64,000 bases of DNA from Candidatus Kaiserbacteria bacterium (GTDB lineage: Bacteria; Patescibacteriota; Minisyncoccia; Phycocordibacterales; Phycocordibacteraceae). The first letter of the stretch is position 1. Every line of letters begins with the position of its first letter. This document shows positions 26,997 through 63,382 of the stretch, piece by piece. The position numbers and the translations under genes are program-made. A model generated the notes under the pieces. That model was not told the origin of the DNA. It ran no database searches and was given only the letters and a program-made list of their open reading frames with translations. The stretch lies in contig JARIGM010000017.1 in assembly GCA_029288865.1 (NCBI GenBank), forward strand, positions 7,131 to 71,130. Reading direction: 5' to 3'.

Positions 26997-27049
26997 CAGT
27001 CGCCTCTCTATCCAAGCGTAAAATCCCGCCTTTCGGGGCGGGATTTATG

Positions 27050-27406
27050 CTACCGCTCTTTCGTGGACTTTATCCATCCTCCGAGCATCCTTCCGATCTC
27101 GTCGATCTTCGTCTCGAGGGAGACGTACTTCTTGTTATCGATGGCCTTCACATCGCACATGAGGCGGATGAAGACGCGCAGTAGATTCAGCTTCATGCTC
27201 GCTTCTTCGAGCGCAGGGAGCTTCTCTGCCTTCGCAGTCTGACCGGCCAGGAGAATGCTCTCGAGCATCTCGACCATCAGCGTCTCGCACTTCTGCCAAA
27301 TGGTGTAGCGGTCTTGCTTAGGGACATCGGCGCGGTATCCATAAAAGACCTTATACAGATCGTAGGACTTCTTAAAAATCGGCGTATCAAATTCATTCAT
27401 AGGCAT
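27050..27406 (-). CDS. avd: DGR accessory variability determinant (Avd; four-helix-bundle, 23S rRNA IVS-protein family)
   Basis: 118 aa. ...FKKSYDLYKVFYGYRADVPKQDRYTIWQKCETLMVEMLESIL...LNLLRVFIRLMCDVKAI... is characteristic of Avd/IVS proteins. Lies between TR and RT on the opposite strand. Confidence 0.7.
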   Translation of the reverse strand: MPMNEFDTPIFKKSYDLYKVFYGYRADVPKQDRYTIWQKCETLMVEMLESILLAGQTAKAEKLPALEEASMKLNLLRVFIRLMCDVKAIDNKKYVSLETKIDEIGRMLGGWIKSTKER

Positions 27407-28433: not shown

Positions 28434-28700
28434 GCGGACACAGAAAACCCGCCACGGGTCCCAGCGTGAGCCAGGCGTACAGGTTTCCCCATACGGCGAT
28501 CAAGCATCCCCATGACGGGTTTTCTATGCTTGATCGCCTTTTTCGCCATGCCCCCAGCCGAAGCTGGAGGTTTAGGCTACTTTTTCTTATTCAGTTGTTC
28601 CTAAATCATAGCCTGCTTCCAGCCCTCCGCACAATGGCCAGGGGATAGGGTCAATGCCGGCCCCGCTGACAGCGGGAAGGGCACGCGTTATAGTGGCTTT

Positions 28701-42697: not shown

Positions 42698-42699
42698 CT

Positions 42700-45600: not shown

Positions 45601-45789
45601 CAATGTACGCTCACCAGCTCAACAGGCAAGAGCTATCCATTGCCGGCAGATAAGTGTACGGAAGATTCTCCGGATGGAGGGTTCGACACAGGAGCGATCA
45701 CAAAGCAGACGGTCTTCACGCTCAATTGTGGTTCAGGCGGAACGGCACAAGCAGTCGTGAACGTGGTACCGAAATTCAACGAATTCTAG
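42700..45789 (+). CDS. giant secreted multi-domain surface protein (CARDB + Ig-like repeats), cassette 1
   Basis: Signal peptide MKTLSKISVLALLLLLTVSPVFA. Repeated PDL...N.G...ENNNCSGWQ (CARDB-like) and ...TLSWSSTNATSCS... Ig-like modules. Conserved C-terminus ...VVNVVPKFNEF. Confidence 0.7.
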   Translation: MKTLSKISVLALLLLLTVSPVFAVQKAADGADTSDGGDASGTLTDHGNTRTDSSNTSTNSTPTGPVISAQYFSGAAASNPPYYIPSSSDPNQRPLSVACSPHQQGSIAIDSNGDAHSVDDGTSLSTTKMVQMGRQNQLQPITVLNKLIWVSVVVGGEHTSPGSYAYKPYTYTYKNADGTVIGTETTTSNDYAAMATYSDSESVHYPWPITTLTVTSGNQSVTVYCDNGSEDSLYLPNITASLSPDGIVQSGSTVHVVPGQPLSLTGYVQATHGSSVFGGGFHNTFMIRASGSDHWAYKQEATPDLILPYRDDNGSVTLNTTPVTATFPASVFTQAGTYEYQFCADTDTDWQGLIHERNELDNCTGGDGAHFVVVDTPATAPSPTVSITANPTSINSGDSSTLSWSSTNATSCSSTDFATGNAASGSVRVTPSSTATYNISCSGDGGTALGSVTVTVSAPPAAPTASITISPGSIDQGDSASLSWSCGDSTSSSGDNFSTGGALSGTVSVSPTQTTSYTVWCNGPGGTTHDSQALTVGPKKYPDLTAQVGPAASGYSNENIPVSGTILNGGSASTRDTFKNMFQVCSNKNCDGYNVITEVSGRMQALAPNEQKDIRANVTVPNSGDYFYRACADLDASWHGVVDEGSDATENNNCSGWQDLSVKDHTAPDLIAGAVSPSTATPGQPVTFMADAINNGNGNSGSFPVMFQIKDGDTFTSNYISLVPNDSKTVSAQHTFAESGEYSIRACANFDHPWAVVDTSELKTDNNCGDWTTISVTAVTELPDLEAGGAPSVTVGANDPVALTGSVTNIGAGSTGGSFANLFRVKSVTASDWTTFKSGSIGAPLGPKGSGNDSEPVEVKFSPKTFPSGNYLYQYCVNMDLDNGWAPSVPEAADGGNNNCSAVGSLDVQQPQQPVDNNDNNNNGNDGNNNNGSSCKNALKVTLTASPTTVSQGKSAKLSWTAEGMNQQCTLTSSTGKSYPLPADKCTEDSPDGGFDTGAITKQTVFTLNCGSGGTAQAVVNVVPKFNEF

Positions 45790-45849
45790 AGCTCGTTCTC
45801 CACATGGAGGGATAGTGAAGGGGGGTGGGGTCTCGTATACTTCAGGTAT
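45790..45849 (+). repeat. conserved ~60-bp intergenic element between giant gene and next cassette (copy 1)
   Basis: gctcgttctccacatggagggatagtgaaggggggtggggtctcgtatacttcaggtatatgaatg... is near-identical to 51649-51708. Confidence 0.6.
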
Positions 45850-46851
45850 ATGAATGAAACTTCAGCCTCGCAATCCATACATTTCTCCGCGCCTCCTCCT
45901 CACCGGTTCTTCAATCTAAACAAGCACTTTCGGCTGTCGCTGGGAGTGCTTCTTGGTATACTCCTGATTCTTGTTTTCGTCGATCGCGCGCAGATCAAGC
46001 AATCACTCGATAGTATATCTGCACTCACGCACGTCAGCGGTAGTTATGTTATACGAGGTTCGGCAATCAGCCGGAGCGTCTTTAGGATCGGTTGGTTCGG
46101 TAATCATCCGGTGACAACTAAGTCCGGCACGGTGATTGACTATGCCCGCTCGGGTTCAAATCAGTACGCACTCGTACTCTCGCCTGATGGCCGCGACGAG
46201 TACCTCATGCACCTTGGCTCAAAAGCAGAAAAGCTTGTTTCGACGGGCGGGACCAAATCAGCACTTGTCGTTTCTGCGAATGGTGCACAACTCGCGTACG
46301 CACAACTTTCTCCAAGCGGTTTTACCAAGACTGGACCATCGAGCGGCATGAAAGATTGGTCCGTCAGCGTATACAGTCCTAAAACGAAATCTGCAATCGT
46401 ATTACCATCAGCGTATCAGCCGGAATTCTTTTCCATTAAAGGAAAGCAGTATATGGAATTCATGTCGCCTCGCGGTATGGGGATAATGGACTTAAGTATT
46501 GCGAACACTTACAACACATCCTATTCAACGAGCACCATGCCCGCGACCAATGTGCTTCATCCAACGTTTGTTACTCCAGATGGTGCCCATGCCCTTATAT
46601 ACAGTTCCGCGGCAGGTGCGTATGCGCTGTACACCATAAGTGGGAATTTCCCATTCTCATTCAAACAAGTCACTACGCTTTCCTCAGCATATGGTCAAGT
46701 GGTCGGAGTAGATGCGAAAGGCTTCTATGTAGTCTCTGCTAACACGAAGGCGAGATCTTCGGACGTGAGCTATGTATCGTTTGCACATCCTACTGCATCC
46801 CTTTGGACCTACCGATCGGATGGCCCTGCAGTCCTTAAGTTGATCCCGTAA
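45850..46851 (+). CDS. TM-anchored beta-propeller-like protein, cassette 2 small partner
   Basis: Paralogue of 41747-42697 (same N-terminal TM, same ...YALVLSPDGRDE... and C-terminal ...LKLIP). Confidence 0.5.
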   Translation: MNETSASQSIHFSAPPPHRFFNLNKHFRLSLGVLLGILLILVFVDRAQIKQSLDSISALTHVSGSYVIRGSAISRSVFRIGWFGNHPVTTKSGTVIDYARSGSNQYALVLSPDGRDEYLMHLGSKAEKLVSTGGTKSALVVSANGAQLAYAQLSPSGFTKTGPSSGMKDWSVSVYSPKTKSAIVLPSAYQPEFFSIKGKQYMEFMSPRGMGIMDLSIANTYNTSYSTSTMPATNVLHPTFVTPDGAHALIYSSAAGAYALYTISGNFPFSFKQVTTLSSAYGQVVGVDAKGFYVVSANTKARSSDVSYVSFAHPTASLWTYRSDGPAVLKLIP

Positions 46852-46860
46852 CTGGCGCCT

Positions 46861-49800
46861 ATGAAAACTATCCTTACTATCGTTCTCGCACTCGCGTTCA
46901 CTATTGTGGGCGCATCGTCAGTACTGGCTATCGGGAGGGGAGGAACTCCTCCGACCGTAAGTCTCTCAGCAAGTAATGTAGAAGTAAGTCCGGGCGACTC
47001 AGTCACTCTTACGTGGTCCTCTACGAACGCGACTTCGTGTTCCAGTTCTCAATTCCCTACGGGTGGCACAAGTGGCGCAATGACAGTGACCCCAGATAGT
47101 CTGCCTACCACGTACTCTATTACCTGCGATGGTGCCGGAGGTTCCGCAACTGACTCAGTCACAATACGGCAAGGGACGAGCGGTTCATGCGATGTTACCG
47201 TTACTGCCGGACAGACTCAGAATTACACCTTCGTGCCGAGTCTTCCCGCCGGTGCCTACGATTTGTCTTATGCAGTTATAGCGCATAGGGTAGATGGATA
47301 CTCGACTGATAATCAGCAATTTAATAGTGATGGTAACTACAATCAGCAGCCTTTCACAGTCAGTAAGACTTGGACTACTCCTGGAAATTACCAGATCCAA
47401 GGTTGGGTCACTTTTTCGCGTGCATCAGGTTGCTCGGCGGGGAGTGGCTGTGCGGGCACCGATCCGTATCAGCAGGATACGATGACTAGTCCAACTGGGT
47501 CCGTATACGCGGAGGACGCCCCCCCTGTTTGTCACGTCACAGTTCTGCCCGCGAAAACGAACCTCACTGCCGGAGGGGCACCAGATTTATACGGTACATT
47601 AGGCCAATCTATTACCGTGATGACCACGAACGGCCAGGCCGTTAATGTGACGAATAACGGGCAGGCAGATGCAGGAGGTTTTACGACCCGATTCACCGTA
47701 AATGGCGGCAGTCCAATAGATGTAAATACGGGAGGTCTTTCGCAAGGAGCCTCTACTGATCTCTCGGCAACTTTTCCTGCAGGCGTATTTCCTTGGGTAG
47801 GTGCTTATACTTATCAATACTGCGTGGACTCCAATGGAAATGTTGATGAGTCTGACGAGAGTAACGGTGATAATTGTAGGTCGGGAAATATATATATAGG
47901 TAGCGCGCCAAGCGCTTGTCAGCTCAATGTGCTAACTGGCCAATCGACGACTTTCCAGATGACTACGAATGGCTACCTAACCTCGCGCGCATATCATGCG
48001 AACTATTCGATCAACTGGGGAAACACGACCTCTACGGGCTGGATAGAGCCGGGCGCAGAGCCGTATGTCGCGTCGCATACTTGGGATACAGCGGGAGATT
48101 ACAAGGTAGAAGGATATGTCGGAGATATTCAGTATATAAATACTCCTCCTTCCTCAGGGGCAGGTTCCGCACCTGATACTCTGATTGCACCAAACGGGCA
48201 GACTGCTACCTGGGCTCAAGGTACAAGTAGCGCGGTTCCGAAGTACTGTAATGTCCATGTGTACGATCCAGCACCAGCACCGACTGCAAGCATTTCGCTC
48301 TCACCAAGTTCGGTCGCTTATGGTGGCTCTTCAACACTCAGCTGGTCATGTGGTAATGCGGACTACGGATGTACGGGCACAGGCTTTAGTACCGGAGGTG
48401 CGGCGAGTGGCAGCATTACGGTCTCTCCTACTAAGAGTACGTATTATCGTGTAGATGCGAGCGGAGCCGGAGGCACTACTTATGCGGACCAATCCCTTTC
48501 GGTAGGGCAGCCGTATCCGGATGTGACTGCAAGGCGCCCAGACACAGCAGTTTCCGCTGTGTGGGGAAATTCATTTAATGTAACCGGAACGGTAATCAAT
48601 ATCGGTGCGGCAGCTATGAATGGACCGTTCTCAGTGACTGCACAAGTATGTGATGGGTTTGGATCTTGCGGCCAATATAACCATCTCAGTGCCATCCAGA
48701 TAGGGACTTTGAATCCTGATCCCTCGGGCGTCGGCGTGACCATACCGGTCCCTTCTACTCCGTCTGCTAGTGTCGGAGGCGCGACATATTCGTACAGAAT
48801 TTGTGCTGATGAGGACGCCGTAGGAAATAAGCCAGTGAATGAGTCAAATGAAGACAATAACTGTAGCGGTTGGCAAACCATAAATGTCACTGCACCAGAT
48901 CTCACGACTGATACGAGTAGCGGCAACGGCGTGGCACCGACTGTCTACGGAGACCTGGGTCAGCCCGTATCTGTTTCCGGCATTGCCGTCAACATTGGTA
49001 ATGCGGGTTCTGGAGGGTTCAGCAATATGTTCGTAACAAATTGGAATGGTTCCAGTTGGAATTCAATTACTGACGGATCCTATATAGGCGGACTCGGGCA
49101 AGGAGGCAGTCAGGCAGGGTTCTCGGGCACCTTCCCTGCGAGCACTTTCGCATCTAAAGGTACCTATGCGTATTCGTACTGTGCCGGCATCAATAGTGGC
49201 TGGCAACAGAGCTTGAGTAACGAATCAAACAACAATAATAACTGTGAGTGGTCGGGAAATATTGTCATTCGCGCACCGGATCTTACTGCTGGCAACCCTA
49301 CGCCTTGGCCAGCTACAACGTTGGTGAATACACCTATTACATTCTCCACTCAAATAAACAACGGCGGGGATGGTAGCTCAGTTTCTTTCCCGGTCTTTTT
49401 CGAGGTAGTGAACGATGGAACCAAATTCGGCTACACGTATTTGAATGGTATCGCCCCGAATGCGCCCGTCACGGCCACTGCAAGTTATACGTTCACTTCT
49501 CCAGGTACCTATCAAGTCATGGCGTGCGTGAACAACAACACAAGCTGGAAGAATATAGCCCCAGAGTCAAAGTATGATAATGACTGCAGCGCCTGGGATA
49601 CGGTAAACGTCTATCCAGTTCCAACGGTAAGCCTCACTCTTACGCCTAATTCAATCGCGTATGGTGGGTCGTCCACGCTTAATTGGTCCTGCACGGGAGC
49701 AGATGCGTGTACGGGGTACGGCTTCAGTACGGGTAATGCGAATAGTGGTTCGATCACGGTGAATCCAACTCAGACTACCAGCTACAGTCTCGGAGCATGG

Positions 49801-51648
49801 AATGGCTCCGGAACAACGGCGAACACGAGCGCGACGTTGACAGTGGGCCAGCCTTATCCGAATCTTACCGCTGATAACAATGGTCCTGTGGTCGCTAAAA
49901 CTGGAAGCACTCCCACTCTATCTGGCACGATTCAAAATATCGGCGCGATCACGACATCCGGATCATTCTATGTCCAGGTACGGTTCTGTGATGCTAATTG
50001 TGCAACTATCGACCGGAGCGTATTCACTTCGACCCAAGCCCTTGCTCCCGGTCCATCACGAGCAGTTTCTTTCTCGCAATTAACGATGCCGAGTCGTGGT
50101 AATTACTACTACCAGATATGTGCGGATGCATATGGTGACGTGCATGAGTCTAAGGAAGATGATAACTGTTCTGGGTGGCAATCTGTCACGGTTACTGCTC
50201 CTGATCTCGTACCGACACCTCCAGGCCCTCCAATAGGTCCAGTATCCCCGACAACTGGCACTGCGGGTTCGCCGGTCACGTTTACCGCTTCCGCAAAGAA
50301 CCAGGGTGATGCTGCCTCTGATTCGTTCCCAATCTTGTTCCAGGTCGAAGAGAATGGAGACCTCTTCAGCAGCAACTATGTAGCGGGGCTCGCATCTGGC
50401 AGCACAGGCTCTGCGTCGGGTGCCTACACCTTCTCCAGGATGGGTACCTATCATGTACGCGAATGTGTGAATCAGATTCCGGACGTTAACCGAGATGTCG
50501 TAGCTGTTGAGAGTAATTACGGGAATAACTGTGGAGATTGGATTCCGGTGACTATATCGGCGCCGAATCCTCTTGGCGAGGGAGTTACTCCGACAACTGC
50601 GATTGCTGGAAGTCCTGTTACCCTCGTAGGCAGTGTCACGGATATGGACCCGAATACTGGTGTGCCATCGGCAGATATTACGACGTCATTCCCTAACTGG
50701 ATTATCATTCGTAATGCAGCGAATGGCGGCGGCTCGGATGTATTCGACAACAATGTAACCGCATCGCCTCTTGCCTCAGGCGCACACGAGACCATTAATG
50801 ATCTCCCGTACACGTTCCCTAGTGAAGGTACGTATTCCGTTCTCGTATGCGCAGGATACGGATTTAACGGCACAACGGATCCGTGGACCCGCGTTCCGGC
50901 GAACTCAAGCGGCGGCGGTTGCGGTCCGTGGACAAATATCACGGTGGGTCCTGCGCCTAAGCCTGATCTCATAGGACTTACTCCTCCAAACATTACGGTG
51001 CAGCAGGGCAATGCAGTACCGGTCTCAGGTACCGTGATGAACCAAGGCACTGTAGGTACGGGAGCAAGCTTCAAGAATATCTTTAAGACTGATCCTCAGG
51101 GAAATGGAACATGGCGTCCTGCTGCGGGCAGCTCAACGGGTGCACCGCTCGCCGGAGGAAATGCAACTGAATCTGTATCTGGCACGTTGCCCGCATTCAC
51201 TCAGCCAGGCGTGTATCCTTACGTACTCTGCGCCGATGAGGATATTGATAACGGTTGGGCAGGCAGTATCGATGAGGGTTCAAACGAAGGAAATAACTGT
51301 AGTGTTCAGCCTGGATTTATCACAGTACAACCCCCACCGCCTCCACCAAGCTGTTCAGGCATGCCAACGCTCAGCCTGACAGCCAATCCGAACCGCGTGG
51401 TTAAGAATGGCAGTGCGACATTGTCATGGCGCGTCACCAACACCCTCAATTCGTGTACAGTCACGAACTCGAATGGAACAACGATCGCAACGATTCCAGC
51501 AGGGCAGTGTTCAGACGTAGCAACCAGCTCGATGAGCACCGGACCGCTCACGAAACAGACCGTCTACTCCTTGAACTGTACGAATGCCGGAACTGCCTAT
51601 GCGACGACCACGGTCGTGAATGTGGTACCGAAATTCAACGAATTTTAG
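46861..51648 (+). CDS. giant secreted multi-CARDB/Ig-like surface protein, cassette 2 (1595 aa)
   Basis: Signal peptide MKTILTIVLALAFTIVGASSVLA. More than 10 repeats ending E(S/D)NE.NNNC. Conserved C-terminal ~100 aa after PPPPPPSCSG ending VVNVVPKFNEF. Confidence 0.7.
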   Translation: MKTILTIVLALAFTIVGASSVLAIGRGGTPPTVSLSASNVEVSPGDSVTLTWSSTNATSCSSSQFPTGGTSGAMTVTPDSLPTTYSITCDGAGGSATDSVTIRQGTSGSCDVTVTAGQTQNYTFVPSLPAGAYDLSYAVIAHRVDGYSTDNQQFNSDGNYNQQPFTVSKTWTTPGNYQIQGWVTFSRASGCSAGSGCAGTDPYQQDTMTSPTGSVYAEDAPPVCHVTVLPAKTNLTAGGAPDLYGTLGQSITVMTTNGQAVNVTNNGQADAGGFTTRFTVNGGSPIDVNTGGLSQGASTDLSATFPAGVFPWVGAYTYQYCVDSNGNVDESDESNGDNCRSGNIYIGSAPSACQLNVLTGQSTTFQMTTNGYLTSRAYHANYSINWGNTTSTGWIEPGAEPYVASHTWDTAGDYKVEGYVGDIQYINTPPSSGAGSAPDTLIAPNGQTATWAQGTSSAVPKYCNVHVYDPAPAPTASISLSPSSVAYGGSSTLSWSCGNADYGCTGTGFSTGGAASGSITVSPTKSTYYRVDASGAGGTTYADQSLSVGQPYPDVTARRPDTAVSAVWGNSFNVTGTVINIGAAAMNGPFSVTAQVCDGFGSCGQYNHLSAIQIGTLNPDPSGVGVTIPVPSTPSASVGGATYSYRICADEDAVGNKPVNESNEDNNCSGWQTINVTAPDLTTDTSSGNGVAPTVYGDLGQPVSVSGIAVNIGNAGSGGFSNMFVTNWNGSSWNSITDGSYIGGLGQGGSQAGFSGTFPASTFASKGTYAYSYCAGINSGWQQSLSNESNNNNNCEWSGNIVIRAPDLTAGNPTPWPATTLVNTPITFSTQINNGGDGSSVSFPVFFEVVNDGTKFGYTYLNGIAPNAPVTATASYTFTSPGTYQVMACVNNNTSWKNIAPESKYDNDCSAWDTVNVYPVPTVSLTLTPNSIAYGGSSTLNWSCTGADACTGYGFSTGNANSGSITVNPTQTTSYSLGAWNGSGTTANTSATLTVGQPYPNLTADNNGPVVAKTGSTPTLSGTIQNIGAITTSGSFYVQVRFCDANCATIDRSVFTSTQALAPGPSRAVSFSQLTMPSRGNYYYQICADAYGDVHESKEDDNCSGWQSVTVTAPDLVPTPPGPPIGPVSPTTGTAGSPVTFTASAKNQGDAASDSFPILFQVEENGDLFSSNYVAGLASGSTGSASGAYTFSRMGTYHVRECVNQIPDVNRDVVAVESNYGNNCGDWIPVTISAPNPLGEGVTPTTAIAGSPVTLVGSVTDMDPNTGVPSADITTSFPNWIIIRNAANGGGSDVFDNNVTASPLASGAHETINDLPYTFPSEGTYSVLVCAGYGFNGTTDPWTRVPANSSGGGCGPWTNITVGPAPKPDLIGLTPPNITVQQGNAVPVSGTVMNQGTVGTGASFKNIFKTDPQGNGTWRPAAGSSTGAPLAGGNATESVSGTLPAFTQPGVYPYVLCADEDIDNGWAGSIDEGSNEGNNCSVQPGFITVQPPPPPPSCSGMPTLSLTANPNRVVKNGSATLSWRVTNTLNSCTVTNSNGTTIATIPAGQCSDVATSSMSTGPLTKQTVYSLNCTNAGTAYATTTVVNVVPKFNEF
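51333..51648 (+). repeat. ~315-bp conserved 3' coding module of giant gene (copy in cassette 2)
   Basis: About 85% nt identity by eye to 56797-57114. Encodes PPPPPPSCSG...TLSLT.NP.RVVKNGSATLSWRVTNTLN.CTV.NS.G...IPAGQCSDVATSSMSTGPLTKQTVYSLNC.NAGTAYATTTVVNVVPK..EF. Confidence 0.7.
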
Positions 51649-51708
51649 GCTCCGCTCTCCACATAGAGGGATAGTGAAGGGGAGCAGGGTCTCGTATACT
51701 TCAGGTAT
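51649..51708 (+). repeat. conserved ~60-bp intergenic element (copy 2)
   Basis: gctccgctctccacatagagggatagtgaaggggagcagggtctcgtatacttcaggtatatgaacg... Confidence 0.6.
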
Positions 51709-52653
51709 ATGAACGAACCTCAACCCTCGCACGTGAATCGGCATACTGCTCTGATCATTGCCATAGTTCTTCTCCTTATAATAATCGGGTTCTTGTACTG
51801 GTTCCGTGCGCCGCTCGGCATGTTTTCTCGCAACTTTGCTGCACTCATGAGCATCCATGGCGAGCATATTGTGCAGGGGCCTGGGATCGGCGAGAAGGTG
51901 AGTACGATCGGATTCTTCGGCGAGCAGAAAGTCACTTCGAAAGCAGGAAGGGTCGTCGACTACGCGCACAGTTCGAAAGGAGACTTCGCGATCATTCTTT
52001 CTCCCGATGGTCGGGATGAAGACGTGTTCTCACTCAGCGATATGCAGAAGATCACGTCCGATGGCGGTATCAAATCATCGCTTTCGGTATCACCTGATGG
52101 AACGAATGTTGCATATGCGGCGCTGAAGCCTGGCGGCTATCATGCATTCGGTCCTTCCTCTAATATCGCAGACTGGAGCGTCCGTATCCATGATGTGAAA
52201 TCTTCGGTGGAGCTCGTTTTCCTCGGTGCGTATCAGCCGCAATTCTTCACCTCTGGCACCTCGACAGTAGTGGCATTCATGCAGCCAGACGGCATTATGA
52301 TGGATAACGTCACTACTCATACCGTTCAGCTCGTAAAAGAGTCAGGGAGCACGTCAACGATGTCTCCGCTGTATGTCTCGCCAGACGGGAAGCATCTCCT
52401 TTCTTATGATCAATCCAAATCGCAGTACGTGCTTTACGACATGTCAGGAACATTCCCATTCACACTCAAGCCCCATGTCCCAATGCCTCCGCTCGGCCAT
52501 GTGATCGGTATGGATAATAATGGAATCTATAGCTCAGTCGTATCATCTCAGGCCAAGAGGGCGGATGTGCTGTATACGACGTTCGCAAAGCCTTTCTCAG
52601 TCGCCTGGACATATGCTTCCAGCGGAACGGCTCTCTTTAAAATGACTCGATAA
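51709..52653 (+). CDS. TM-anchored beta-propeller-like protein, cassette 3 small partner
   Basis: Paralogue of 41747-42697 and 45850-46851. Confidence 0.5.
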   Translation: MNEPQPSHVNRHTALIIAIVLLLIIIGFLYWFRAPLGMFSRNFAALMSIHGEHIVQGPGIGEKVSTIGFFGEQKVTSKAGRVVDYAHSSKGDFAIILSPDGRDEDVFSLSDMQKITSDGGIKSSLSVSPDGTNVAYAALKPGGYHAFGPSSNIADWSVRIHDVKSSVELVFLGAYQPQFFTSGTSTVVAFMQPDGIMMDNVTTHTVQLVKESGSTSTMSPLYVSPDGKHLLSYDQSKSQYVLYDMSGTFPFTLKPHVPMPPLGHVIGMDNNGIYSSVVSSQAKRADVLYTTFAKPFSVAWTYASSGTALFKMTR

Positions 52654-52659
52654 CTTCAT

Positions 52660-55600
52660 ATGAAAAAAATCCTGATCCCGCTCGTGCTGCTCGCCTCGCT
52701 TACCGTCGCTGCTCCGCATATGGCGCTCGCAAATGACGGCGGCTCCTGTGATTCGACGATATACCAGGGGAATTCCATCGTATTTTCTGCGGAAGATGCG
52801 CCAGGTGGGTCGAATGCAGCCACATACGAGCTGGATATGTCGGGTCCATCTAATATGACAGTCACGCAACGGCAGAACTACGGTGGGGGTACCCAGCCTC
52901 CGACATACGGAATCATGGCAACTTTCCCATTCAATAAACCGGGTTCTTATACCATTACTGCCCGTATCTACGACATCAACTACCCTGTCGGATATCAGCA
53001 AGGTGGAGCTTCTGGTGCCGTGCCTCTTCAGATAAATGCCGGCACTTACGATAATCCGCAAGCGCAGAAGGCCTGGGTTGCTGACCAAAACGCAAACCCT
53101 CCGACCTGTACGATCACGGTGCAACCTACGCCGAAGCCGGATCTCGTGCCCGGAACTGGCCAGACAATATATGGGACAGTGGGGCAGAACGTGGCTATTC
53201 CTGCAAGCGTGACCAATAGCGGGAATGCAGACGCGAGCGGATTCACAGTATGGTTCAATTCCAACGGTCAGAATCCGACTGTTTCAGTCGGAGGTCTCGG
53301 TGCGGGAGCGTCGCAAGATGTCTCGACGACGCTACAATCTTCCGGTTGGGGAGCGGGCACGTACTCATATCAATACTGCGTCGACCAGTACGGACAGGTG
53401 GATGAATCGAGTGAAGACAATAACTGTACGAGCGGGTCGATCATCCTGAACAATCCACCCTCGCCTGATGTGGCCATCACTGATATCTGGCAGAGCGGGA
53501 CCGCGATTGCTGGACAGCCAGTGACGCTTTGGGCATACGAGCAGAACAACGGTAATGCGGATTCAGGTAACTTCACGGTCCAATTCTTTAGCTCTGATGG
53601 GTCCGTGAACGCATATAGCGGAAATGTGTACCTCACGAGCTCCGGCGGCGCAGCGAATACATCCATCTCCTATACCTTTCCCTCTGCAGGAACGTATTAC
53701 TTGAAAGCTTGCGCGAGCGTCGCGAACGATTCAAATGGCGCGAATAACTGCAGCGCGGATTGGATCCCAGTAACGGTCTACCCGGTCCCAACCGCAAGTC
53801 TTTCTCTTAGTCCAAACTCGGTTCCTTATGGAGGTTCCGCAACTCTAAGCTGGTACTGCGGCAATGCGGATTCATGCGGAGGGACGAACTTCAGTACGAA
53901 CGGCCAGGTGAGCGGTTCGGTCACGGTCTCGGCAACCCAAACCACGACATATTCGCTTTGGTCAAATGGTCCCGGCGGCAACACTCCTGCCTATCAGACC
54001 CTCACGGTGGGTCCGCCATATCCCGACCTCACTGCTGGAACGGGCGGCCCGCTGACGGTGGTCTCGAAGGCGAACTTTAGCCTCGGTGGCACTGTCTACA
54101 ATATTGGCGATACGGGAACACCGAGCTCTTTCAACAATCTCGTACAGATCTGTGACCGCAACGATGGTACCTGTCCGAACTATTACCAAGGGATGTCATC
54201 TGGAATGTCTGCACTTGCGAACGGCAACTCGCAGGGCACGTCCTTCACGGCTCACATCGATGCTCCGGGAACCTATTATTATCGCCTTTGCGCTGACCTC
54301 GATACCAGTGGGAACGGCACGATCGCCGAATCTAATGAAAGAAATAACTGCGGCGTCTGGCAAAGCATCACCGTACTCGCACCAGATCTCACCGTCGGTG
54401 GCATAAACACTACCTATGGTGTACTCGGTCAAAGTGTATCCGTGAGTGGTACTGCAATAAATAATGGGAATGCCTCGACCGGCGGCTTCAATAGCATGTT
54501 TGTGACCAACTGGAACGGAAGCTCTTGGCAGACGATCACTTCAGCGAATTGGACCTCGAATCTTGGTCCTGGCGGATCAGCATCCATCGGTGGTACATTC
54601 CCCGCGAATGCATTCTCACATCGAGGCACTTATCAGTATGCATATTGTGCGGGCATCGATTCTTCATGGAACTGGAGCTTAAACAATGAATCGAACACTA
54701 ATAATAATTGTATAAGTGGCGGCTCCCTCGTCATCCAAGCTCCTGATCTTACTGCGGGCGGCGTTTCGCTCAGTGGCACGGCGATCGCTGGTCAGCCGAC
54801 AGGCTTCAACGCCACTGCGTATAACAATGGCGATTACGGGTCCAATGCCTTCCCGGTGATGTTCCAGGTACAGAATAGTAGTGGTCAGGATGTCGCGTAC
54901 GTCACGAGCGGCTATGTGGGAGGTCTCGCACCTGGCGGATCAACAGGCGCGAGCGCATCGACGGTCTTGTCGAGTGCCGGCACATATAACGTCCGTGCTT
55001 GTGCGAACCGCAATTCAAGCTGGGGACTCGTAGTCACTAATGACACGGATACTACAAATGACTGCGGCGGTTGGACTTCTTTCACGCTCTATCCAGTCCC
55101 GACGGCAAGCATCTCGCTTTCGCCATCCTCGGTCGCATACGGCGGCTCCACCACTGTTACGTGGTCATGTGCGAGCGGCGCAACCTCGTGCGCGGGAACT
55201 AACTTCAATACAAATGGCGCCATGAGCGGCTCGGTAACTGTCTCTGCGACGCAGACTACCACCTACACGGTCTGGGCTAACGGTCCTGGCGGCACTACAA
55301 GCGCTGCGCAAACCCTGTCGGTCGGTCCTCCGTATCCAGATCTTACAGCGAGCATCACCAGTGGCTGGATCACGGCTACAATGAATACGAGCTTCACGAT
55401 GAATGGTACGGTCTCTAATATCGGCAACGCAGCAACTCCGGGATCTTTCCCGAATATGGTACAGATCTGCGATTCGAATTGTGCTACGTACAATCAACGA
55501 TATTCAGCCTCGACAGCAGCACTCGCGAATGGCCAGTCTCGAGCTATCTCGTTCACTGCAAGCATACCAACGGCGGGGTCATATTACTTCCGCATCTGTG

Positions 55601-57114
55601 CCGACGTTGACTCGAATTGGAATGGTGTCGTAGATGAAGGCTCTGTTCCAAGTGAAGACAATAACTGTACTAACTGGCAGAACCTTACTGTGGCGGCACC
55701 GAATCTTACGCCAGGTGCGCTCACTCCGACGAGTGCAGTAGCGGGCAGTCCTGTAACATTCAGCTCAGACATCACTAATAGCGGAAATTCTGACGCTCCT
55801 TCATTCCCTGTGCGTTTCCAAATTCAGGAGAATGGCGATGTATTCACGAGTACGTATAGCGGTTCTGCGCTTCCTGCTGGTTGGCTGCGTACTATGTCGG
55901 GTAGTTATACATTCGCCAGTGCCGGTACTTATCATGTGCAAGCATGTGCAAACGAGAACGCGGCAGGTACGATGATCGTTCAAGAGTCGAACTATAGAGA
56001 TAACTGTACTGCTTGGACTGCCGTCACGGTGAGTCCGCAACCGAAGCCGGACCTCATACCAGGTAGCGCTCCGACCATAACAATCACTCGTGGCCAGACG
56101 GCAACGGTAACCGGAAGCGTCACAAACAGCGGAAACCTTGGTGCTACTAGTTTCCCGACAATGTTCGCGACGAATCTTAATCAAGCACAGAATGGATGGA
56201 ATACCATGCAGGCCGGCCCGACGGTCAGCTCGCTTGCGGTGAACGGCACCACGAACATAACGAGCACGTTCCCTGCAACTACCTTTCCGACAGCTGGTAC
56301 GTATACATACACCTACTGTGTGAATACGGACACAAGCTGGAGTCATCCGCTCGATGAGGGTACAGCGACCGGTAATGACTGTGCGTGGCCATATGGTTCT
56401 ATTATTGTGAATGACCCGACCTATCCAGATCTCATCGTTACCAGTGCACCGAATGTCTCGGCTCAGGTAGGACAGGTACAGAACATCACGCTCAGCGGTA
56501 CGGTGAAGAACCAGGGCACCGCAGATGCTGGATCGTTCCATAATCTTATGGCGACGAATCAAACGCAAAACGGATGGAGCGACTCGACCGACGCGACAAC
56601 TATCAGCTCGCTTGCTCAGGGACAGTCTGCGACGGTATCCGGATCGTTCCCGCCAGGAACCTTCACGAGCCCAGGTTCATATGTGTACGAGATATGTACG
56701 AACATGAACCGAAGCAACGGATGGGCTGCAGACCTCGATGAGGGCACCTCGGCGAATAAGGGTAATAACTGTACAACCGGTGTCATAACAGTATCCCCAC
56801 CGCCACCGCCACCGAGCTGTTCAGGCACTCCGACACTCAGCCTGACATCTAATCCGAGCCGTGTGGTCAAGAATGGTAGTGCGACATTGTCATGGCGTGT
56901 CACCAACACCTTGAACGCATGTACGGTGAAGAACTCGAGCGGCGCGACTCTCGCGACGATACCAGCAGGGCAGTGCTCGGATGTGGCGACCAGCTCGATG
57001 AGCACTGGACCGCTCACTAAGCAGACCGTGTACTCGCTCAACTGTTCGAATGCTGGAACTGCCTATGCGACCACGACTGTCGTGAACGTAGTGCCGAAAT
57101 ACGGCGAATTCTAA
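52660..57114 (+). CDS. giant secreted multi-CARDB/Ig-like surface protein, cassette 3 (1484 aa)
   Basis: Signal peptide MKKILIPLVLLASLTVAAPHMALA. The same repeat architecture. C-terminal module ~85% nt-identical to that of cassette 2, ending VVNVVPKYGEF. Confidence 0.7.
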   Translation: MKKILIPLVLLASLTVAAPHMALANDGGSCDSTIYQGNSIVFSAEDAPGGSNAATYELDMSGPSNMTVTQRQNYGGGTQPPTYGIMATFPFNKPGSYTITARIYDINYPVGYQQGGASGAVPLQINAGTYDNPQAQKAWVADQNANPPTCTITVQPTPKPDLVPGTGQTIYGTVGQNVAIPASVTNSGNADASGFTVWFNSNGQNPTVSVGGLGAGASQDVSTTLQSSGWGAGTYSYQYCVDQYGQVDESSEDNNCTSGSIILNNPPSPDVAITDIWQSGTAIAGQPVTLWAYEQNNGNADSGNFTVQFFSSDGSVNAYSGNVYLTSSGGAANTSISYTFPSAGTYYLKACASVANDSNGANNCSADWIPVTVYPVPTASLSLSPNSVPYGGSATLSWYCGNADSCGGTNFSTNGQVSGSVTVSATQTTTYSLWSNGPGGNTPAYQTLTVGPPYPDLTAGTGGPLTVVSKANFSLGGTVYNIGDTGTPSSFNNLVQICDRNDGTCPNYYQGMSSGMSALANGNSQGTSFTAHIDAPGTYYYRLCADLDTSGNGTIAESNERNNCGVWQSITVLAPDLTVGGINTTYGVLGQSVSVSGTAINNGNASTGGFNSMFVTNWNGSSWQTITSANWTSNLGPGGSASIGGTFPANAFSHRGTYQYAYCAGIDSSWNWSLNNESNTNNNCISGGSLVIQAPDLTAGGVSLSGTAIAGQPTGFNATAYNNGDYGSNAFPVMFQVQNSSGQDVAYVTSGYVGGLAPGGSTGASASTVLSSAGTYNVRACANRNSSWGLVVTNDTDTTNDCGGWTSFTLYPVPTASISLSPSSVAYGGSTTVTWSCASGATSCAGTNFNTNGAMSGSVTVSATQTTTYTVWANGPGGTTSAAQTLSVGPPYPDLTASITSGWITATMNTSFTMNGTVSNIGNAATPGSFPNMVQICDSNCATYNQRYSASTAALANGQSRAISFTASIPTAGSYYFRICADVDSNWNGVVDEGSVPSEDNNCTNWQNLTVAAPNLTPGALTPTSAVAGSPVTFSSDITNSGNSDAPSFPVRFQIQENGDVFTSTYSGSALPAGWLRTMSGSYTFASAGTYHVQACANENAAGTMIVQESNYRDNCTAWTAVTVSPQPKPDLIPGSAPTITITRGQTATVTGSVTNSGNLGATSFPTMFATNLNQAQNGWNTMQAGPTVSSLAVNGTTNITSTFPATTFPTAGTYTYTYCVNTDTSWSHPLDEGTATGNDCAWPYGSIIVNDPTYPDLIVTSAPNVSAQVGQVQNITLSGTVKNQGTADAGSFHNLMATNQTQNGWSDSTDATTISSLAQGQSATVSGSFPPGTFTSPGSYVYEICTNMNRSNGWAADLDEGTSANKGNNCTTGVITVSPPPPPPSCSGTPTLSLTSNPSRVVKNGSATLSWRVTNTLNACTVKNSSGATLATIPAGQCSDVATSSMSTGPLTKQTVYSLNCSNAGTAYATTTVVNVVPKYGEF
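56797..57114 (+). repeat. ~315-bp conserved 3' coding module of giant gene (copy in cassette 3)
   Basis: See 51333-51648. Confidence 0.7.
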
Positions 57115-57159: not shown

Positions 57160-57408
57160 ATGAAAAAGGATATCCACCCAGCAAATTACCGCACGGTGAT
57201 GTTTGAGGACCTCGCTTCTGGCGAAGTATTCCTCATCGGTTCGACCGTGAAGACCACTGAGACTGGCACATATAAGGGCCAGGACTACCCGAAGATGGTC
57301 GTTGAAATCTCGAGCAAATCGCACCCGTTTTACACTGGTGAAGACCGCACTCTCGATAAGACAGGACGCGTCGAGCGCTTCAAGCAGCGCGCTGCAAAGA
57401 AGAAATAA
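57160..57408 (+). CDS. rpmE: 50S ribosomal protein bL31 (type B, no zinc-binding cysteines)
   Basis: MKKDIHPANYRTVMF...HPFYTGEDRTLDKTGRVERFKQR. Confidence 0.85.
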   Translation: MKKDIHPANYRTVMFEDLASGEVFLIGSTVKTTETGTYKGQDYPKMVVEISSKSHPFYTGEDRTLDKTGRVERFKQRAAKKK

Positions 57409-57414
57409 AGCTTC

Positions 57415-57515
57415 AGAGGCAGTAGCATTTTTAGGTACGCTGTATTTTTCCGCTGAAAAATCAGCTCGCTCTCGCGCCGACGCGCTCCGAGAGCACTAAA
57501 AATGCTACTGCCTCT
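57415..57515 (+). ncRNA. structured RNA-like element, copy A (20-bp outer helix + conserved core + covarying inner hairpin)
   Basis: Outer helix agaggcagtagcatttttag / ctaaaaatgctactgcctct (20/20 bp). Core GGTACGCTGT-[ATTTTTC cgct GAAAAAT]-CAGCTCGCTCTCG-loop-CTCCGAGAGC. Lies 66 nt 5' of prfA. Second copy at 62451-62597. Confidence 0.45.
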
Positions 57516-57581: not shown

Positions 57582-58532
57582 ATGGAATATTCTCCGGAGT
57601 TCAAGAAGAATCACTCGACTGCGTATCTAGCGGGGGAGTACGAACGGCTCGCTGCAGAAGCAGAAGAGTCCAAGCAAGCTGCGGGCGATGACCCGGAGCT
57701 TCTCGAAATGTCCCAAGAGGATCTTACGCGTATCGCGGCGCGTCAGCAGGAGATTCTTCAGGAAATCCAGCAGATCCTAGACAAGGATAAAGAGGAGGAA
57801 GAGAAGGCGAAGGCGATCGTGCTGGAATTCCGTGCCGGAGCAGGCGGCGATGAGGCGACACTCTTTGCCCAGGAACTTCGGGAAATGTATCAAAAATACG
57901 CTGAATCCAAAGGTTGGCGTGTGCGCATGATCGACGAGCTGACGCTAGAGATCGAGGGCGCTGATGCGTATGATGCGCTTCGCTACGAGACGGGTGTGCA
58001 TCGAGTGCAGCGCGTGCCGGTGACGGAGAAGTCCGGCCGTATCCATACGTCTACGGCCTCGGTCGCTGCCATGCCGATCCGCACGAAGCCGAAATTCGAG
58101 ATAAACCCGGCGGACATCGAGATGGAGTTTTCTCGCGCCGGAGGTGCAGGCGGTCAGAACGTGAACAAGGTGGAGAGTGCCGTGCGTCTCATCCATAAGC
58201 CGACCGGCATCGACGTGCGCTCTACGAGCGAACGTACCCAGCTCGGAAACCGCGAAAAGGCTATGAGCATCCTCGCTGCAAAGCTCGATTCATTAGCCGA
58301 AGAGGAAGAAGCTAAGAAGCATGCAGCGCTCCGCAGCGGCCAGATCGGAACGGCAGACCGTTCGGAAAAGATCCGCACGTATAACTTCCTCCAGGACCGC
58401 ATCACGGACCACCGCATCAAGGAATCCTGGCACAACCTCCCGAAGATTATGCTCGGCGCGATTGACCCGATCATTGAGGCCCTCCAGGCTGCAGCCGCGG
58501 AAGGCGGCATCGGCGCCGCCGAAGAAGATTAG
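57582..58532 (+). CDS. prfA: peptide chain release factor 1
   Basis: GGQ motif ([12 protein letters not shown]) and an RF1-type PxT tripeptide (RVPVTE), not the RF2 SPF. Confidence 0.85.
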
Positions 58533-61175: not shown

Positions 61176-62420
61176 TTAGCGCCACGAGCGGCGGGTGCCC
61201 GTCATGACATCGAGTATGGTACGCATGAGCCAGAAGGGCGCGATGAGTCCATACAAGAACATGAACGCGACGATGCCCGAGAAGAGGCGGCTTGGGGTAT
61301 TCGAGATACGCTTGCCGACCACGATAAGACCGATCGTGCCGAGAGTGATGATCGTACCGAGCATGGCCACTGCAGTGAGCGGAATGTAATACCAGCCAAG
61401 ATTGCTGAAGTGGGGTACGAGCGAATACGAGAGAGGCACGCCTCTGATGAGCGTGTAGGTCGAGATGATCTGCGTGATGACTTGAATGATCACGAGGAAG
61501 AATAAGAAAAGGCCCGCGACGATGGCGAGTACGCCGAGCGGCAGTACGAGGAGTCCGAGCGCGCCGAACTTCCGGTTGCCCAGCATGTCGCGATAATCAT
61601 AGAGGACATTTCGTACGAAGCCGGTCGTCCAGCGCGTGCGTTGCTTGATGAGCGCTCGGACCGTCATGGGCGCTGTCGTATAGACGCGGGCGCGCGGCGC
61701 GTTGTCGATCAGATAGCCTGCCCGCTGCATGCGGAGTGCCATTTCCATGTCTTCTGCGTTATGTGCCTTGCGGAAACCGCCCAATTCAAGCACGAGGTCG
61801 CGACGATAGAATGAAAACGGCCCTGGCGTCACATAGAGACCGTTCACTGCGGCGAGTATATGACGGAGTGCGATACCCATAATGTACTCAGCATTTTGCA
61901 TTGCTTGGAGGATGTTCTTCGGCTCATAGACGGACATTGCCGCAGTGACCGCAGCAATCCTCGGGTTGTCGAAATAGCCGATGATTTCGCGAAGCGCATC
62001 AGGCGCCACGAAAGAGTCGGCGTCCAGGCCGCCGATGTACTCGGCGCTCGTTGCCGCTTCGATGCCCATGTTGAGCGCGCTGTGCTTGCCGCCATTCTCT
62101 TTGTGGATCACGAGGATCTGCGGAGTGCCGACATAGCTGTCCATCACTGCGGCAGTGTTGTCTTTGGACCCGTCATTCACGAGTACGATCTGGAGCTTAT
62201 CTTTGGGGTAGTCGAGGGCGAGCAGGGAATCGATGGTGCCTTTGATAGTGTCTTGTTCGTTGTAGCAGGGAACGACGATGGCTACGGGCGGCGTGAAGTC
62301 GGAGACAACCTTATTGCGGCGTTCGCGCGCTGGCTTCGAGAGGTAGGTGACGAGAAGAAACGTTTCGAAGAAAAGCGTGATAAAGAGAATAGGATACGTC
62401 CAAGCGCTGAGGTCGATCAT
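61176..62420 (-). CDS. family 2 processive glycosyltransferase (cellulose/PNAG/hyaluronan synthase-like)
   Basis: VVPCYNEQDTI, LVNDGSKDNT, GGLDADSF (DxD), QRTRWTTG (QxxRW) and multiple C-terminal TM helices. The 5' end in the ORF track (62579) runs through a structured element; real start probably MIDLS at about 62420 or MLRVW at about 62459. Confidence 0.8.
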   Translation of the reverse strand: MIDLSAWTYPILFITLFFETFLLVTYLSKPARERRNKVVSDFTPPVAIVVPCYNEQDTIKGTIDSLLALDYPKDKLQIVLVNDGSKDNTAAVMDSYVGTPQILVIHKENGGKHSALNMGIEAATSAEYIGGLDADSFVAPDALREIIGYFDNPRIAAVTAAMSVYEPKNILQAMQNAEYIMGIALRHILAAVNGLYVTPGPFSFYRRDLVLELGGFRKAHNAEDMEMALRMQRAGYLIDNAPRARVYTTAPMTVRALIKQRTRWTTGFVRNVLYDYRDMLGNRKFGALGLLVLPLGVLAIVAGLFLFFLVIIQVITQIISTYTLIRGVPLSYSLVPHFSNLGWYYIPLTAVAMLGTIITLGTIGLIVVGKRISNTPSRLFSGIVAFMFLYGLIAPFWLMRTILDVMTGTRRSWR

Positions 62421-62450
62421 ACCGCGTATAATAAGAGTATTATACCACAC

Positions 62451-62597
62451 CCTGAGCATATGCGGTAGTAAGGTACGCTGTCGTTTTCTGCTGAAAACGC
62501 AGCTCGCTCTCGAACGGGTGAATTTGCTCGCAGCCGCCTTACGGCTCGCAAATATCACTCGTTCTCCGAGAGCCCTCACTACCGCATATGCTCAGGG
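62451..62597 (+). ncRNA. structured RNA-like element, copy B
   Basis: Outer helix ccctgagcatatgcggtagt / actaccgcatatgctcaggg (20/20 bp, unrelated in sequence to copy A). Same core GGTACGCTGT-[CGTTTTC tgct GAAAACG]-CAGCTCGCTCTCG-(60-nt insert)-CTCCGAGAGC. Ends 30 nt 5' of pheS. Confidence 0.45.
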
Positions 62598-62626
62598 TGT
62601 AGCACCTTACTTCTCGGCATTATTCG

Positions 62627-63382
62627 ATGTATAGTGGCGTATATATGGCAGAGCACGGGCGGTTGCATCCGATCACGATTGCGGTACGCGAGATTGCGGA
62701 CATCTTTGGTCGCATGGGCTTCGGTGTGGCGTACGGTCCTGAGCTTGAGGACGAGTGGTACAACTTCACGGCCCTCAACGTGCCAGCGGATCATCCGGCA
62801 CGCGACATGCAGGATACCTTCTGGATTAAGGATCGAGATAATCAAGTGCTCCGCACGCACACTACGTCGGTGACGATTCGCTGCCTCGAAGAGATGGCAA
62901 AGAGCGGCGTCGAGCATATGCGCATGATCGCTCCATCTAAAGTGTTTCGAAATGAGGCGACTGACATGACGCACGAAGCGCAGTTCTATCAGCTCGACGG
63001 ATTCGCAGTTGGAAAGATCGGTGAGGTGTCACTCGCGCATCTCAAAGGCACATTCGATCAATTTTATCGCGAATATCTCGGCGAGAATGCGCAGGTCCGT
63101 TTCCGCCCCAGCTTCTTCCCGTTCACCGAACCATCGGTTGAGATCGATGTGTGGTATGAGCCCAAAGGAAAGGAAGGCCGTTGGCTTGAAATGTCTGGCG
63201 CGGGAATGTTGCATCCAAATGTGCTTAAGAATGCGGGCCTTGATCCGGAGAAATATGCTGGCTTCGCGTTCGGCGGTGGGCTCGAGCGATTGGTGATGGT
63301 AAAGCATGGCGTCACGGACGTGCGCTATTTCCATTCGGGAGATCTGCGATTCGTATACGGATTTGAAGAATCCGTCTCATAA
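62627..63382 (+). CDS. pheS: phenylalanine--tRNA ligase alpha subunit (short form lacking the N-terminal domain)
   Basis: ...GRLHPITIAVREIADIFGRMGFGVAYGPELEDEWYNFTALNVPADHPARDMQDTFW... aligns to the catalytic core of bacterial PheS from about residue 100. Motif 3 ...GFAFGGGLERL. Confidence 0.8.
   Translation: MYSGVYMAEHGRLHPITIAVREIADIFGRMGFGVAYGPELEDEWYNFTALNVPADHPARDMQDTFWIKDRDNQVLRTHTTSVTIRCLEEMAKSGVEHMRMIAPSKVFRNEATDMTHEAQFYQLDGFAVGKIGEVSLAHLKGTFDQFYREYLGENAQVRFRPSFFPFTEPSVEIDVWYEPKGKEGRWLEMSGAGMLHPNVLKNAGLDPEKYAGFAFGGGLERLVMVKHGVTDVRYFHSGDLRFVYGFEESVS

Follow-up and report, generated by a model that had tools for sequence, protein, structure and literature searches.

A small palindromic repeat family of Paceibacteria, with a conserved three-way-junction core between probably host-derived arms

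When two long, nearly perfect palindromes of the same design lie directly upstream of translation genes, should one read them as regulatory RNA leaders or as something that happens to the DNA itself? The question is raised by a 64-kb stretch of Candidatus Kaiserbacteria DNA (contig JARIGM010000017.1; the whole analysed stretch is called the window here), in which copy A lies between rpmE and prfA, and copy B lies between the divergent genes for a GT2 glycosyltransferase and pheS. An earlier note on this DNA described the pair as a novel structured RNA, a candidate cis-regulatory leader or small-RNA family. We find that A and B are members of an uncatalogued family of small, non-coding palindromic repeats which, as far as sampled, is confined to one clade of Paceibacteria (Parcubacteria, ultra-small bacteria of the Candidate Phyla Radiation, CPR). 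Selfish or mutational DNA is the likeliest explanation for them, ahead of an RNA leader that regulates genes.

The two copies consist of the following parts.

57415–57515, plus strand: copy A, whole palindromic unit (short, A-type), from covariance model R1 (95 bits) and the fold
57415–57434, plus strand: copy A, 5′ arm of the outer helix; the outer 12 nt are locus-specific, the inner ATTTTTAG is common to copies elsewhere
57435–57495, plus strand: copy A, conserved 61-nt core (GTAC...GAGAGCA), from the fold and the alignment of copies
57439–57465: hairpin P2 of core A, next to junction J1/2 (GTAC), with a bulged T at 57443 and the loop CGCT
57468–57494: hairpin P3 of core A, next to junction J2/3 (TC), with a TCC bulge at 57486–57488
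57496–57515, plus strand: copy A, 3′ arm of the outer helix, from the inverted-repeat search
62447–62600, plus strand: copy B, whole palindromic unit (long, B-type), from covariance model R1 (84 bits) and the fold
62447–62473, plus strand: copy B, 5′ arm of the outer helix; perfect part 62450–62469
62473–62574, plus strand: copy B, conserved core of 102 nt, with P2 at 62477–62503 and P3 at 62506–62573
62512–62564, plus strand: copy B, apical hairpin extension of P3 (..TCGCAGCCGCCTTACGGCTCGCA..), from the comparison of copies
62574–62600, plus strand: copy B, 3′ arm of the outer helix; perfect part 62578–62597

Both copies fold into one and the same three-way junction. The outer helix forms P1; the P2 hairpin has 11 bp and carries a bulged T, and the P3 hairpin is marked by a TCC bulge. 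Compared with shuffled sequences, the folds score z = −9.2 (A) and −12.7 (B), and the opposite strand folds equally well (z = −8.8 and −13.1). The arms of copy A are 20 nt each and 100% complementary, while those of copy B pair over 27 bp (62447–62473 with 62574–62600) with a single A·C mismatch and contain a perfect 20-nt stretch; the 20-bp perfect outer helix claimed for each copy therefore stands, except that the perfect arm of B begins at 62450 and not at 62451. The P2 hairpins (ATTTTTC-cgct-GAAAAAT in A, CGTTTTC-tgct-GAAAACG in B) differ by two compensated pairs, as had been reported. The insert between CAGCTCGCTCTCG and CTCCGAGAGC does vary between the copies, at 10 nt in A (not 13) and 51 nt in B (not about 60). 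Exact matches to GGTACGCTGT occur in the window only at 57434 and 62472, and to CAGCTCGCTCTCG only at 57462 and 62500; in the covariance-model search of all 64 kb the next match after A and B scores 16 bits.

Membership of a wider family was sought with exact-pattern scans (20-base patterns) of 185,579 species genomes and a metagenome set, followed by covariance models, one of them built from ten copies. PrfA homologues, the best at 90%, mark the organism as a relative of Paceibacteria, and the syntenic rpmE-prfA-rpsB-tsf-...-GT2-pheS regions of relatives were searched with the models as well. Of the matches in the scan of one genome per species, five are true copies, from four Patescibacteria/Paceibacteria assemblies (L006, L008, L016, L010 and L015); the other 15 are chance, at about the expected number. 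Metagenomes added L026, L029 and L039, and the covariance model also found a divergent second copy in L039 (L039-2). In total the family has 18 copies, A and B plus 16 more in related Paceibacteria DNA, in about 13 genomes and at about 10 independent sites, so the covariance-model check bears out a recurrent element beyond the window. Copy number is low, at one to three per sampled region. The conserved unit is the 61-nt core, or about 100 nt with an extra hairpin on P3; the apical P3 hairpin of copy B is common only to the B-type copies L050:5470-5588 and L059:18003-18123.

Among the RNA families of Rfam the element has no match. A scan of the window with Rfam 15 at gathering thresholds finds only a LOOT RNA and one tRNA, with no match on A or B; permissive scans of the two copies give sub-threshold chance matches only (E at least 0.055), and five related loci have no Rfam match. 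BLAST of both copies against phage and plasmid sequences and a search of viral contigs with the core pattern were likewise negative. In the literature on CPR miniature inverted-repeat transposable elements (MITEs) or terminator-loop insertions we found nothing relevant.

Covariation in the family is extensive. In an alignment of 16 sequences 96% of the cells pair and 26 of the 31 pairs have changed on both sides, a result that none of 500 shuffles and no slid register comes near; the conserved structure with covariation first read from two copies is thereby confirmed. Even stem bases that look invariant covary in divergent copies, with GCTG/CAGC becoming GGAA/TTCC, and GCTCTC/GAGAGC becoming CTGC/GCAG (L064). 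What stays constant in these copies is mainly the bulged T, the C-TGCT-G loop, the TC junction and the TCC-type bulge. A perfect helix, kept in structure though not in sequence, together with this degree of covariation would satisfy the usual tests for a functional RNA, and we recommend caution on this point in RNA-motif discovery. Despite the covariation we favor DNA-level processes because of the orientation of the copies, their presence and absence among relatives, and the native origin of an arm.

The genes beside the two copies are these.

57160–57408: L31 (rpmE)
57582–58532: PrfA
61179–62420, minus strand: GT2 glycosyltransferase
62627–63382: PheS

Unrelated spacer of 67 nt (A) and about 27–45 nt (B) precedes the start codons. 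It is correct that both copies are co-oriented with a translation gene that they precede, prfA and pheS respectively, but copy B lies between divergent genes. When orientation is counted at sites with a clear direction of transcription, the family has sense copies between rpmE and prfA (site A; the window, L026, L039, L064, L065 and L066), prfA and rpsB (L039), frr and rseP (L015), and the CARDB and 8xMP genes (L059). Antisense copies lie between rplE and rpsN (L006 and L010), between rpsB and tsf (L050), upstream of rpsS (L029), and, in L050, between rpmE and prfA. Some antisense copies are the highest-scoring ones (L006, 103 bits; L050-D, 89–92 bits). The antisense copy at site A of L050 has the same GGAA/TTCC variant of the P2 base as the sense copy L064, a pattern that would fit an inversion in situ.

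Presence varies, too. The closest relative, L046, whose PrfA is 91% identical, lacks both A and B: rpmE is followed at site A by a plain terminator hairpin, and a 35-nt spacer separates the two −10 boxes at the pheS site. Site A is also empty in L048, L053, L057, L059, L060 and L062, which with L046 makes seven lineages, and among nine syntenic genomes selected by PrfA similarity alone only two carry the element there. Site C, at the 3′ end of prfA, and site D are each filled in a single genome.

Could the element nevertheless be a riboswitch-like or attenuator-like leader of prfA and pheS? The co-orientation of both window copies with a translation gene speaks for it. L050, however, carries the element inverted at its prfA site, the seven lineages carry none, pheS of L046, L048 and L060 does without it, and antisense copies sit inside ribosomal-protein operons. 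The terminator and promoter scan makes no call on either window copy and there is no Rfam match; neither the constant orientation and position of a cis-regulatory leader nor an expression platform is found. Two orientations, absence from the closest relatives, degenerate or interrupted copies, and near-identity across unrelated sites together lead us to reject the leader reading, which is largely refuted and hardly credible by now. A small-RNA role keeps some probability, but none of the results supports it. The judgement that a simple terminator is unlikely holds: the tails 3′ of the window copies, CTCTTTCGCG (A) and TGTAGCACC (B), have no U-tract, unlike some related copies that carry T-tracts. 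Any effect on prfA or pheS, be it through termination, mRNA processing or displacement of a −35 region, would be a by-product.

The surroundings of copy B deserve a word of their own. A conserved TATTATACCACA abuts its 5′ arm and may be read as an extended −10 box of the divergent GT2 gene; TGTGGTATAAT (62436–62449, minus strand) resembles such a box of the GT2 gene, and TGTATAGT (62629–62640) one of pheS. As both putative boxes lie only about 10–20 nt from the start codons, the mRNAs would be very short-leadered or leaderless, and copy B would occupy the space expected for both −35 regions. The right flank of copy B (62601–62631, AGCACCTTACTTCTCGGCATTATTCGAT) resembles the reverse complement of the empty-site spacer of L046 (about 5040–5075), the likeness consisting of a shared GCCGAGAA plus flanks (about 17/26), and a local inversion may have taken place here.

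If the element is not tied to a gene, how do its copies relate to one another? The cores of L006, between rplE and rpsN, and L050-D, between rpsB and tsf, are identical at 61 of 61 positions, and their identity ends at G-TAC...GAGAGC-C. The core of window copy A matches both at 59 of 61, whereas the prfA DNA of the window and L050 is 73% identical. Core identity across unrelated sites is thus 97–100%, and since it spans stem positions that covary freely elsewhere, a recent common origin is to be preferred over constraint. L050 also holds two much more divergent copies, one GGAA-type and one divergent B-type, so that copies within one genome are not homogenized.

Divergent, old-looking copies are L039-2, L050-B and L064. 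Others are interrupted: L065 has a 39-nt insertion in the P2 loop, and L065 and L066 have a 40-nt hairpin at the apex of P3 that differs from the apical hairpin common to window B, L050-B and L059. Sought outside the elements in the sampled loci, such apical inserts were found only inside them. The copies L016 7842-7921 and L008 1202-1281 lie on adjacent pieces of JAKBHL010000006.1, where they are inverted, 1.28 kb apart, and have 145 nt in common (96.5% identical), including 40-nt arms; the pair flanks two small secreted-protein genes in a cassette-like or invertible-segment-like arrangement. The ends of the element are fuzzy, with 8–10 bp of inner arm in common among some copies and 40 bp in L008/L016. 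Taken by its behavior, then, the core acts as a low-copy, non-autonomous mobile element, on the grounds of its non-homologous intergenic sites, either orientation, presence and absence, near-identical alongside degenerate copies, and nested insertions.

The arms tell a different story. Their sequence differs at every site and their pairing is almost always perfect Watson–Crick, the total over the copies being 258 Watson–Crick pairs, 2 G·U, 5 A·C and 6 other. Two G·U against five A·C pairs is no significant bias by which to choose a strand, and without an excess of G·U on either strand the arms lack the signature of an RNA helix under selection and look as expected for DNA palindromes.

One arm can be traced to native sequence. 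In L039-2, at site C, native prfA sequence, namely the codons for RVAS, makes up the outer 10 nt of the 5′ arm (GCGTGGCGAG). L065, a 91%-identical relative, has the same codons with neither the element nor a complementary 3′ arm, and L066 likewise lacks both at this site; it follows that the 3′ arm of L039-2 arose within the L039 lineage as an inverse copy of the flank. With the insertion, the C-terminal tail of PrfA was rewritten as well. A second case is the rpmE-prfA site of L066, which has 26-bp perfect arms: the 5′ arm extends outward by 8 nt (GCAAAGCG), the complement of a 3′ flank (CGCTTTGC...TAAAGTA) that all relatives keep and that sits outside the helix in L039. In both cases, then, an arm identical to the flank has no complement in a sister.

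The B-type cores of the window and L050 at site B are orthologous and adjoin the same conserved TATTATACCACA, but the arms around them, 27 and 30 bp long, are unrelated. At other sites the outermost arms look like the ordinary terminators that relatives have in matching places (L059 compared with L048; site A compared with L046), and the inner 8–10 bp (ATTTTTAGG/CCTAAAAAT or GATTTTRGAG) recur in a subset of copies only. To judge from these alignments, the outer helix lies outside the conserved element and is host-derived. The variability of the helix had been taken as a sign of selected RNA structure, an argument that does not survive if the arms are generated locally from flanking host DNA or from pre-existing terminator stems. 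The argument against a MITE from the lack of identical terminal inverted repeats loses its force for the same reason, the arms being host-derived.

Long palindromes without the core also occur in these genomes (L053 9635-9678, 9776-9807 and 13550-13608; L060 about 9810-9845; L039 about 2310-2345). Those of L053 comprise 22+22 bp and 16+16 bp without a spacer and one 28-bp stem, in which terminator A/T tracts lie inside a longer palindrome. Perfection and growth of palindromes look like a general property of the clade. In the window the sole other helix of such length is a perfect hairpin of 21 bp, its loop 20 nt long, that follows the L25 gene (40176–40237, AGAAAACACCC.../...GGGTGTTTTCT), which resembles a bidirectional terminator. 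L053 15750-15867, between GT2 and pheS, and L059 about 11700-11800, between rpsB and tsf, each have a long outer helix with a foreign inner part that our models do not match; these may be further families of apex-resident elements.

What process would produce a constant core between ever-changing perfect arms? Template switching is described as yielding reverse-complement copies, perfect stems and multi-base 'compensatory' changes (PMC8794818), as homogenizing arms and inverting spacers (PMC8604942) and as expanding arms (PMC13100816). Our preferred reading, held with slightly better than even confidence, is a small, non-autonomous mobile palindromic repeat whose hairpin nucleates template switching, by which the arms are built, made perfect and lengthened and the core can be turned around. 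When single-stranded, the core would fold into two hairpins at a three-way junction. The outer helix would be host DNA, either a pre-existing terminator-type hairpin or a flank duplicated in inverse by fold-back copying. The stable core would then nucleate template switching during replication, by which the arms would be homogenized and extended and the spacer inverted, and the core itself would move in trans by means of some enzyme, or through recombination or DNA uptake. Template switching at the core would explain why the arms are perfect, why their sequences are unrelated and why they reach into coding and promoter DNA, and also the flips of orientation and much of the covariation.

Several observations weigh against this. 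At site A the core of the window is 90% identical to that of L039, the adjacent prfA 68%, and the core's own arms are far less conserved; over the copies at this site the cores are 90–97% identical while their own arms have diverged, which could reflect purifying selection. The unpaired features (bulged T, C-TGCT-G loop, TC junction and TCC bulge) persist in divergent copies, even though bulges should tend to disappear if template switching acted alone. Of seven sites ascertained independently, five lie next to translation genes. The copies are few, and neither a transposase nor constant terminal inverted repeats nor a target-site duplication came to light. The Pfam-annotated open reading frames (ORFs) of the chromosomal part of the window (about 33–64 kb) include no transposase or recombinase domain; a tyrosine recombinase (30777–31853) and a reverse transcriptase lie in the prophage part, without a link to the element. 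Finally, the template-switch origin of the arms stands on two clear cases only.

The conservation within the core keeps a functional structured RNA in view, though we think it rather unlikely. It would be a small RNA, or a module of intergenic or 3′ untranslated regions, bound by a protein or processed by RNase III, with the closing helix as a processing or stability stem; its gene would be horizontally mobile and the divergent copies would be decaying paralogues. This would suit the 96% of paired cells and 26 of 31 covarying pairs, the conserved junction, loop and bulge nucleotides, the very stable folds, the retention of the element between rpmE and prfA in several lineages, the enrichment beside translation genes, and cores that are 87–100% identical where neighboring prfA is 67–77%. 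Against it, well-conserved copies occur in both orientations, some antisense ones scoring best, with no associated promoter or terminator; G·U pairs are not in excess over A·C, both strands fold equally, and the closest relatives lack the element. The most conserved loop tolerates a large insertion in L065, and compensatory change can arise mutationally (PMC8794818). A somewhat different possibility, likewise an improbable one, is that the 61-nt three-way junction is the recognition signal, as folded single-stranded DNA or RNA, for a CPR enzyme, or else a horizontally mobile functional RNA of Paceibacteria near translation genes. A recognition signal, if true, would make this a new kind of minimal mobile element, without terminal repeats or target-site duplication, which would lodge at the tips of hairpins and duplicate its target in inverse instead of direct orientation.

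Orientation independence and symmetric pairing statistics would also be expected of a host DNA signal, for instance a site, bound as such or as a cruciform, for a nucleoid protein or for one that acts in replication, recombination or regulation, close to highly expressed genes. The palindromic GTAC junction, the position of copy B exactly between two divergent −10 boxes, and the clustering of copies in the rpmE-prfA-rpsB-tsf-pheS-gyrB neighborhood of several genomes point the same way. Most close relatives with the same gene order lack the site, however, some copies are degenerate or interrupted, the window has no GC-skew landmark and no cognate protein has been identified, and we regard such a signal as quite improbable. 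Very doubtful, too, is an element that never moves: an elaborated terminator loop of ancient date, passed on vertically with repeated losses, whose likeness across sites goes back to old local duplications. Several copies do stand where a terminator is expected, and some arms have A- and T-tracts (L059, L050-A and L050-B); the arms at site A appear homologous among the window, L026 and L039, and L008/L016 is a local inverted duplication whose two copies lie 1.28 kb apart. This leaves 61/61 and 59/61 identity across sites and genomes, freely covarying positions included, to be explained, as well as the position of copy B and L016 upstream of divergent genes, where no terminator is expected, and the lack of U-tracts in the window copies.

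The family has some wider bearing. It adds an uncatalogued set of repeats to the record of CPR bacteria, whose genomes are small and usually counted as repeat-poor. It also offers a natural case of a stable hairpin that seems to seed the growth of palindromes into coding and promoter sequence, with a rewritten PrfA C-terminus in one genome and, in the window, the presumed −35 region of two putative promoters occupied. Such elements break short-read assemblies, which bears on the quality of CPR metagenome-assembled genomes: L050, L051 and L052, three independent short-read assemblies, start (position 1) at the same base inside the P2 hairpin of the antisense copy between rpmE and prfA.

Other features of the window should be mentioned for anyone annotating this contig.

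1–32000: prophage-like region of higher G+C (0.56–0.60), with genes for portal, prohead protease, capsid, tail tube, baseplate/collar, MazF toxin, two C5 DNA methylases, SNF2 helicase, a Trp-repressor-like protein and a tyrosine integrase (30777–31853)
25603–28578: complete diversity-generating retroelement, within the prophage-like region
26409–26525: its variable repeat, at the 3′ end of the gene 25603–26553
26884–27000: its template repeat; the two repeats are 91% identical, with 10 of 11 mismatches at template adenines
27405–28433: its reverse transcriptase (RVT_1)
28460–28578, opposite strand: LOOT RNA (RF03000, 78 bits)
42649–57114: tandem genes whose products are secreted, repetitive and very large (1046, 1595 and 1484 aa; CARDB-type repeats), with internal repeats of 79–300 nt in common and conserved 3′ ends just upstream of rpmE

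How does the family compare with what is known? Several better-known designs were considered and set aside. The arms resemble the a1/a2 arms of a retron non-coding RNA (msr-msd), but the neighbors are rpmE, prfA, GT2 and pheS, with no adjacent reverse transcriptase; the only one in the window lies 30 kb away and belongs to the diversity-generating retroelement, which rules a retron out. A guide or antisense hairpin was rejected, as exact scans with both window arms find no match in viral contigs and the arms have no other near-match in the window. The stretch GGTACGCTGTA-TTTTTC-TGCTGAAAAAT bears a loose likeness, by eye, to a dif/Xer site, but covariation joins the would-be XerD arm to the 5′ half in a hairpin. 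The junction sequences do not fit a hammerhead or twister core, and Rfam gives no match. The left flanks end in TTAG, TTCG, AAAG, AGAA and ATGA, with no constant word of the kind that an IS200/IS605-style target tetranucleotide would leave. A promoter of the element's own in P2 (GAAAAT) is lost in the B-type and the L029/L059 variants and receives no promoter call, and GC skew is uninformative as to a replication landmark.

Intrinsic (bidirectional) terminators of the same genomes likewise follow genes, and some outermost arms carry A- or T-tracts as they do (compare L046, L059, L060 and L062). The family differs from them in having a structured insert of 61–102 nt in place of a 3–8-nt loop, and in copy B, which lies between divergent promoters; the G+C-rich stem, short loop and 3′ U-tract of an intrinsic terminator are not the combination found in the window copies. 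Published template-switch quasipalindromes (PMC8794818, PMC8604942, PMC13100816, PMC7202029) have the same perfect arms, multi-base compensation, arm extension and spacer inversion. Unlike them, the present palindromes are apparently nucleated by a conserved, transferable core of 61–102 nt, and their arms reach 20–30 bp. The spacer inversions of PMC8604942 concern spacers of a few bases, so that inverting a 61-nt spacer is an extrapolation.

The element sits at the apex of a host palindrome, with the host arms as its flanking inverted repeat. The same is true of insertion sequences that target the hairpin loops of palindromic units, or REP sequences, such as IS1397 and members of the IS110/IS1111 family, which are kilobase-sized and encode a transposase. 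Our element, unlike these, is 61 nt long without an ORF, and at least some of its arms were made at or after insertion rather than pre-existing. Folded single-stranded DNA is the substrate in integron attC sites, IS200/IS605 ends and REP-RAYT systems. The family resembles such substrates in stems conserved more in structure than in sequence, conserved extrahelical bases and covariation without G·U bias; it differs in having no integrase or HUH gene nearby, no fixed flanking tetranucleotide, and conserved bases that are central rather than terminal.

The closest company is that of REP/REPIN, ERIC, Correia, RUP, the Rickettsia palindromic elements and MITEs, which are short, non-coding, hairpin-forming, mostly intergenic and found in either orientation. 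Bacterial palindromic repeats and MITEs are polymorphic in presence among relatives, form subfamilies, have decaying copies and may overlap the ends of genes. The present family is similarly short, non-coding and dispersed in either orientation, with filled and empty orthologous sites and decaying copies. It departs from the REP and MITE kinds in its low copy number and in lacking constant or conserved terminal inverted repeats and a recognizable target-site duplication; the flanks are palindromic, and a 2-bp GC/CG 'duplication' is indistinguishable from continued pairing. In the search for an autonomous, transposase-encoding relative, limited to exact 20-base patterns, all matches were short elements. 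GTAC precedes P2, a point of contact with REP/REPIN-RAYT systems, but the copies are few, the sampled DNA showed no Y1/HUH gene, and no partner RAYT or DDE protein was identified. A further difference is that the conserved part is central here and the long arms are locus-specific host sequence. We set the element among the small dispersed palindromic repeats, its unusual trait being a conserved central three-way junction with host-derived inverted duplications around it.

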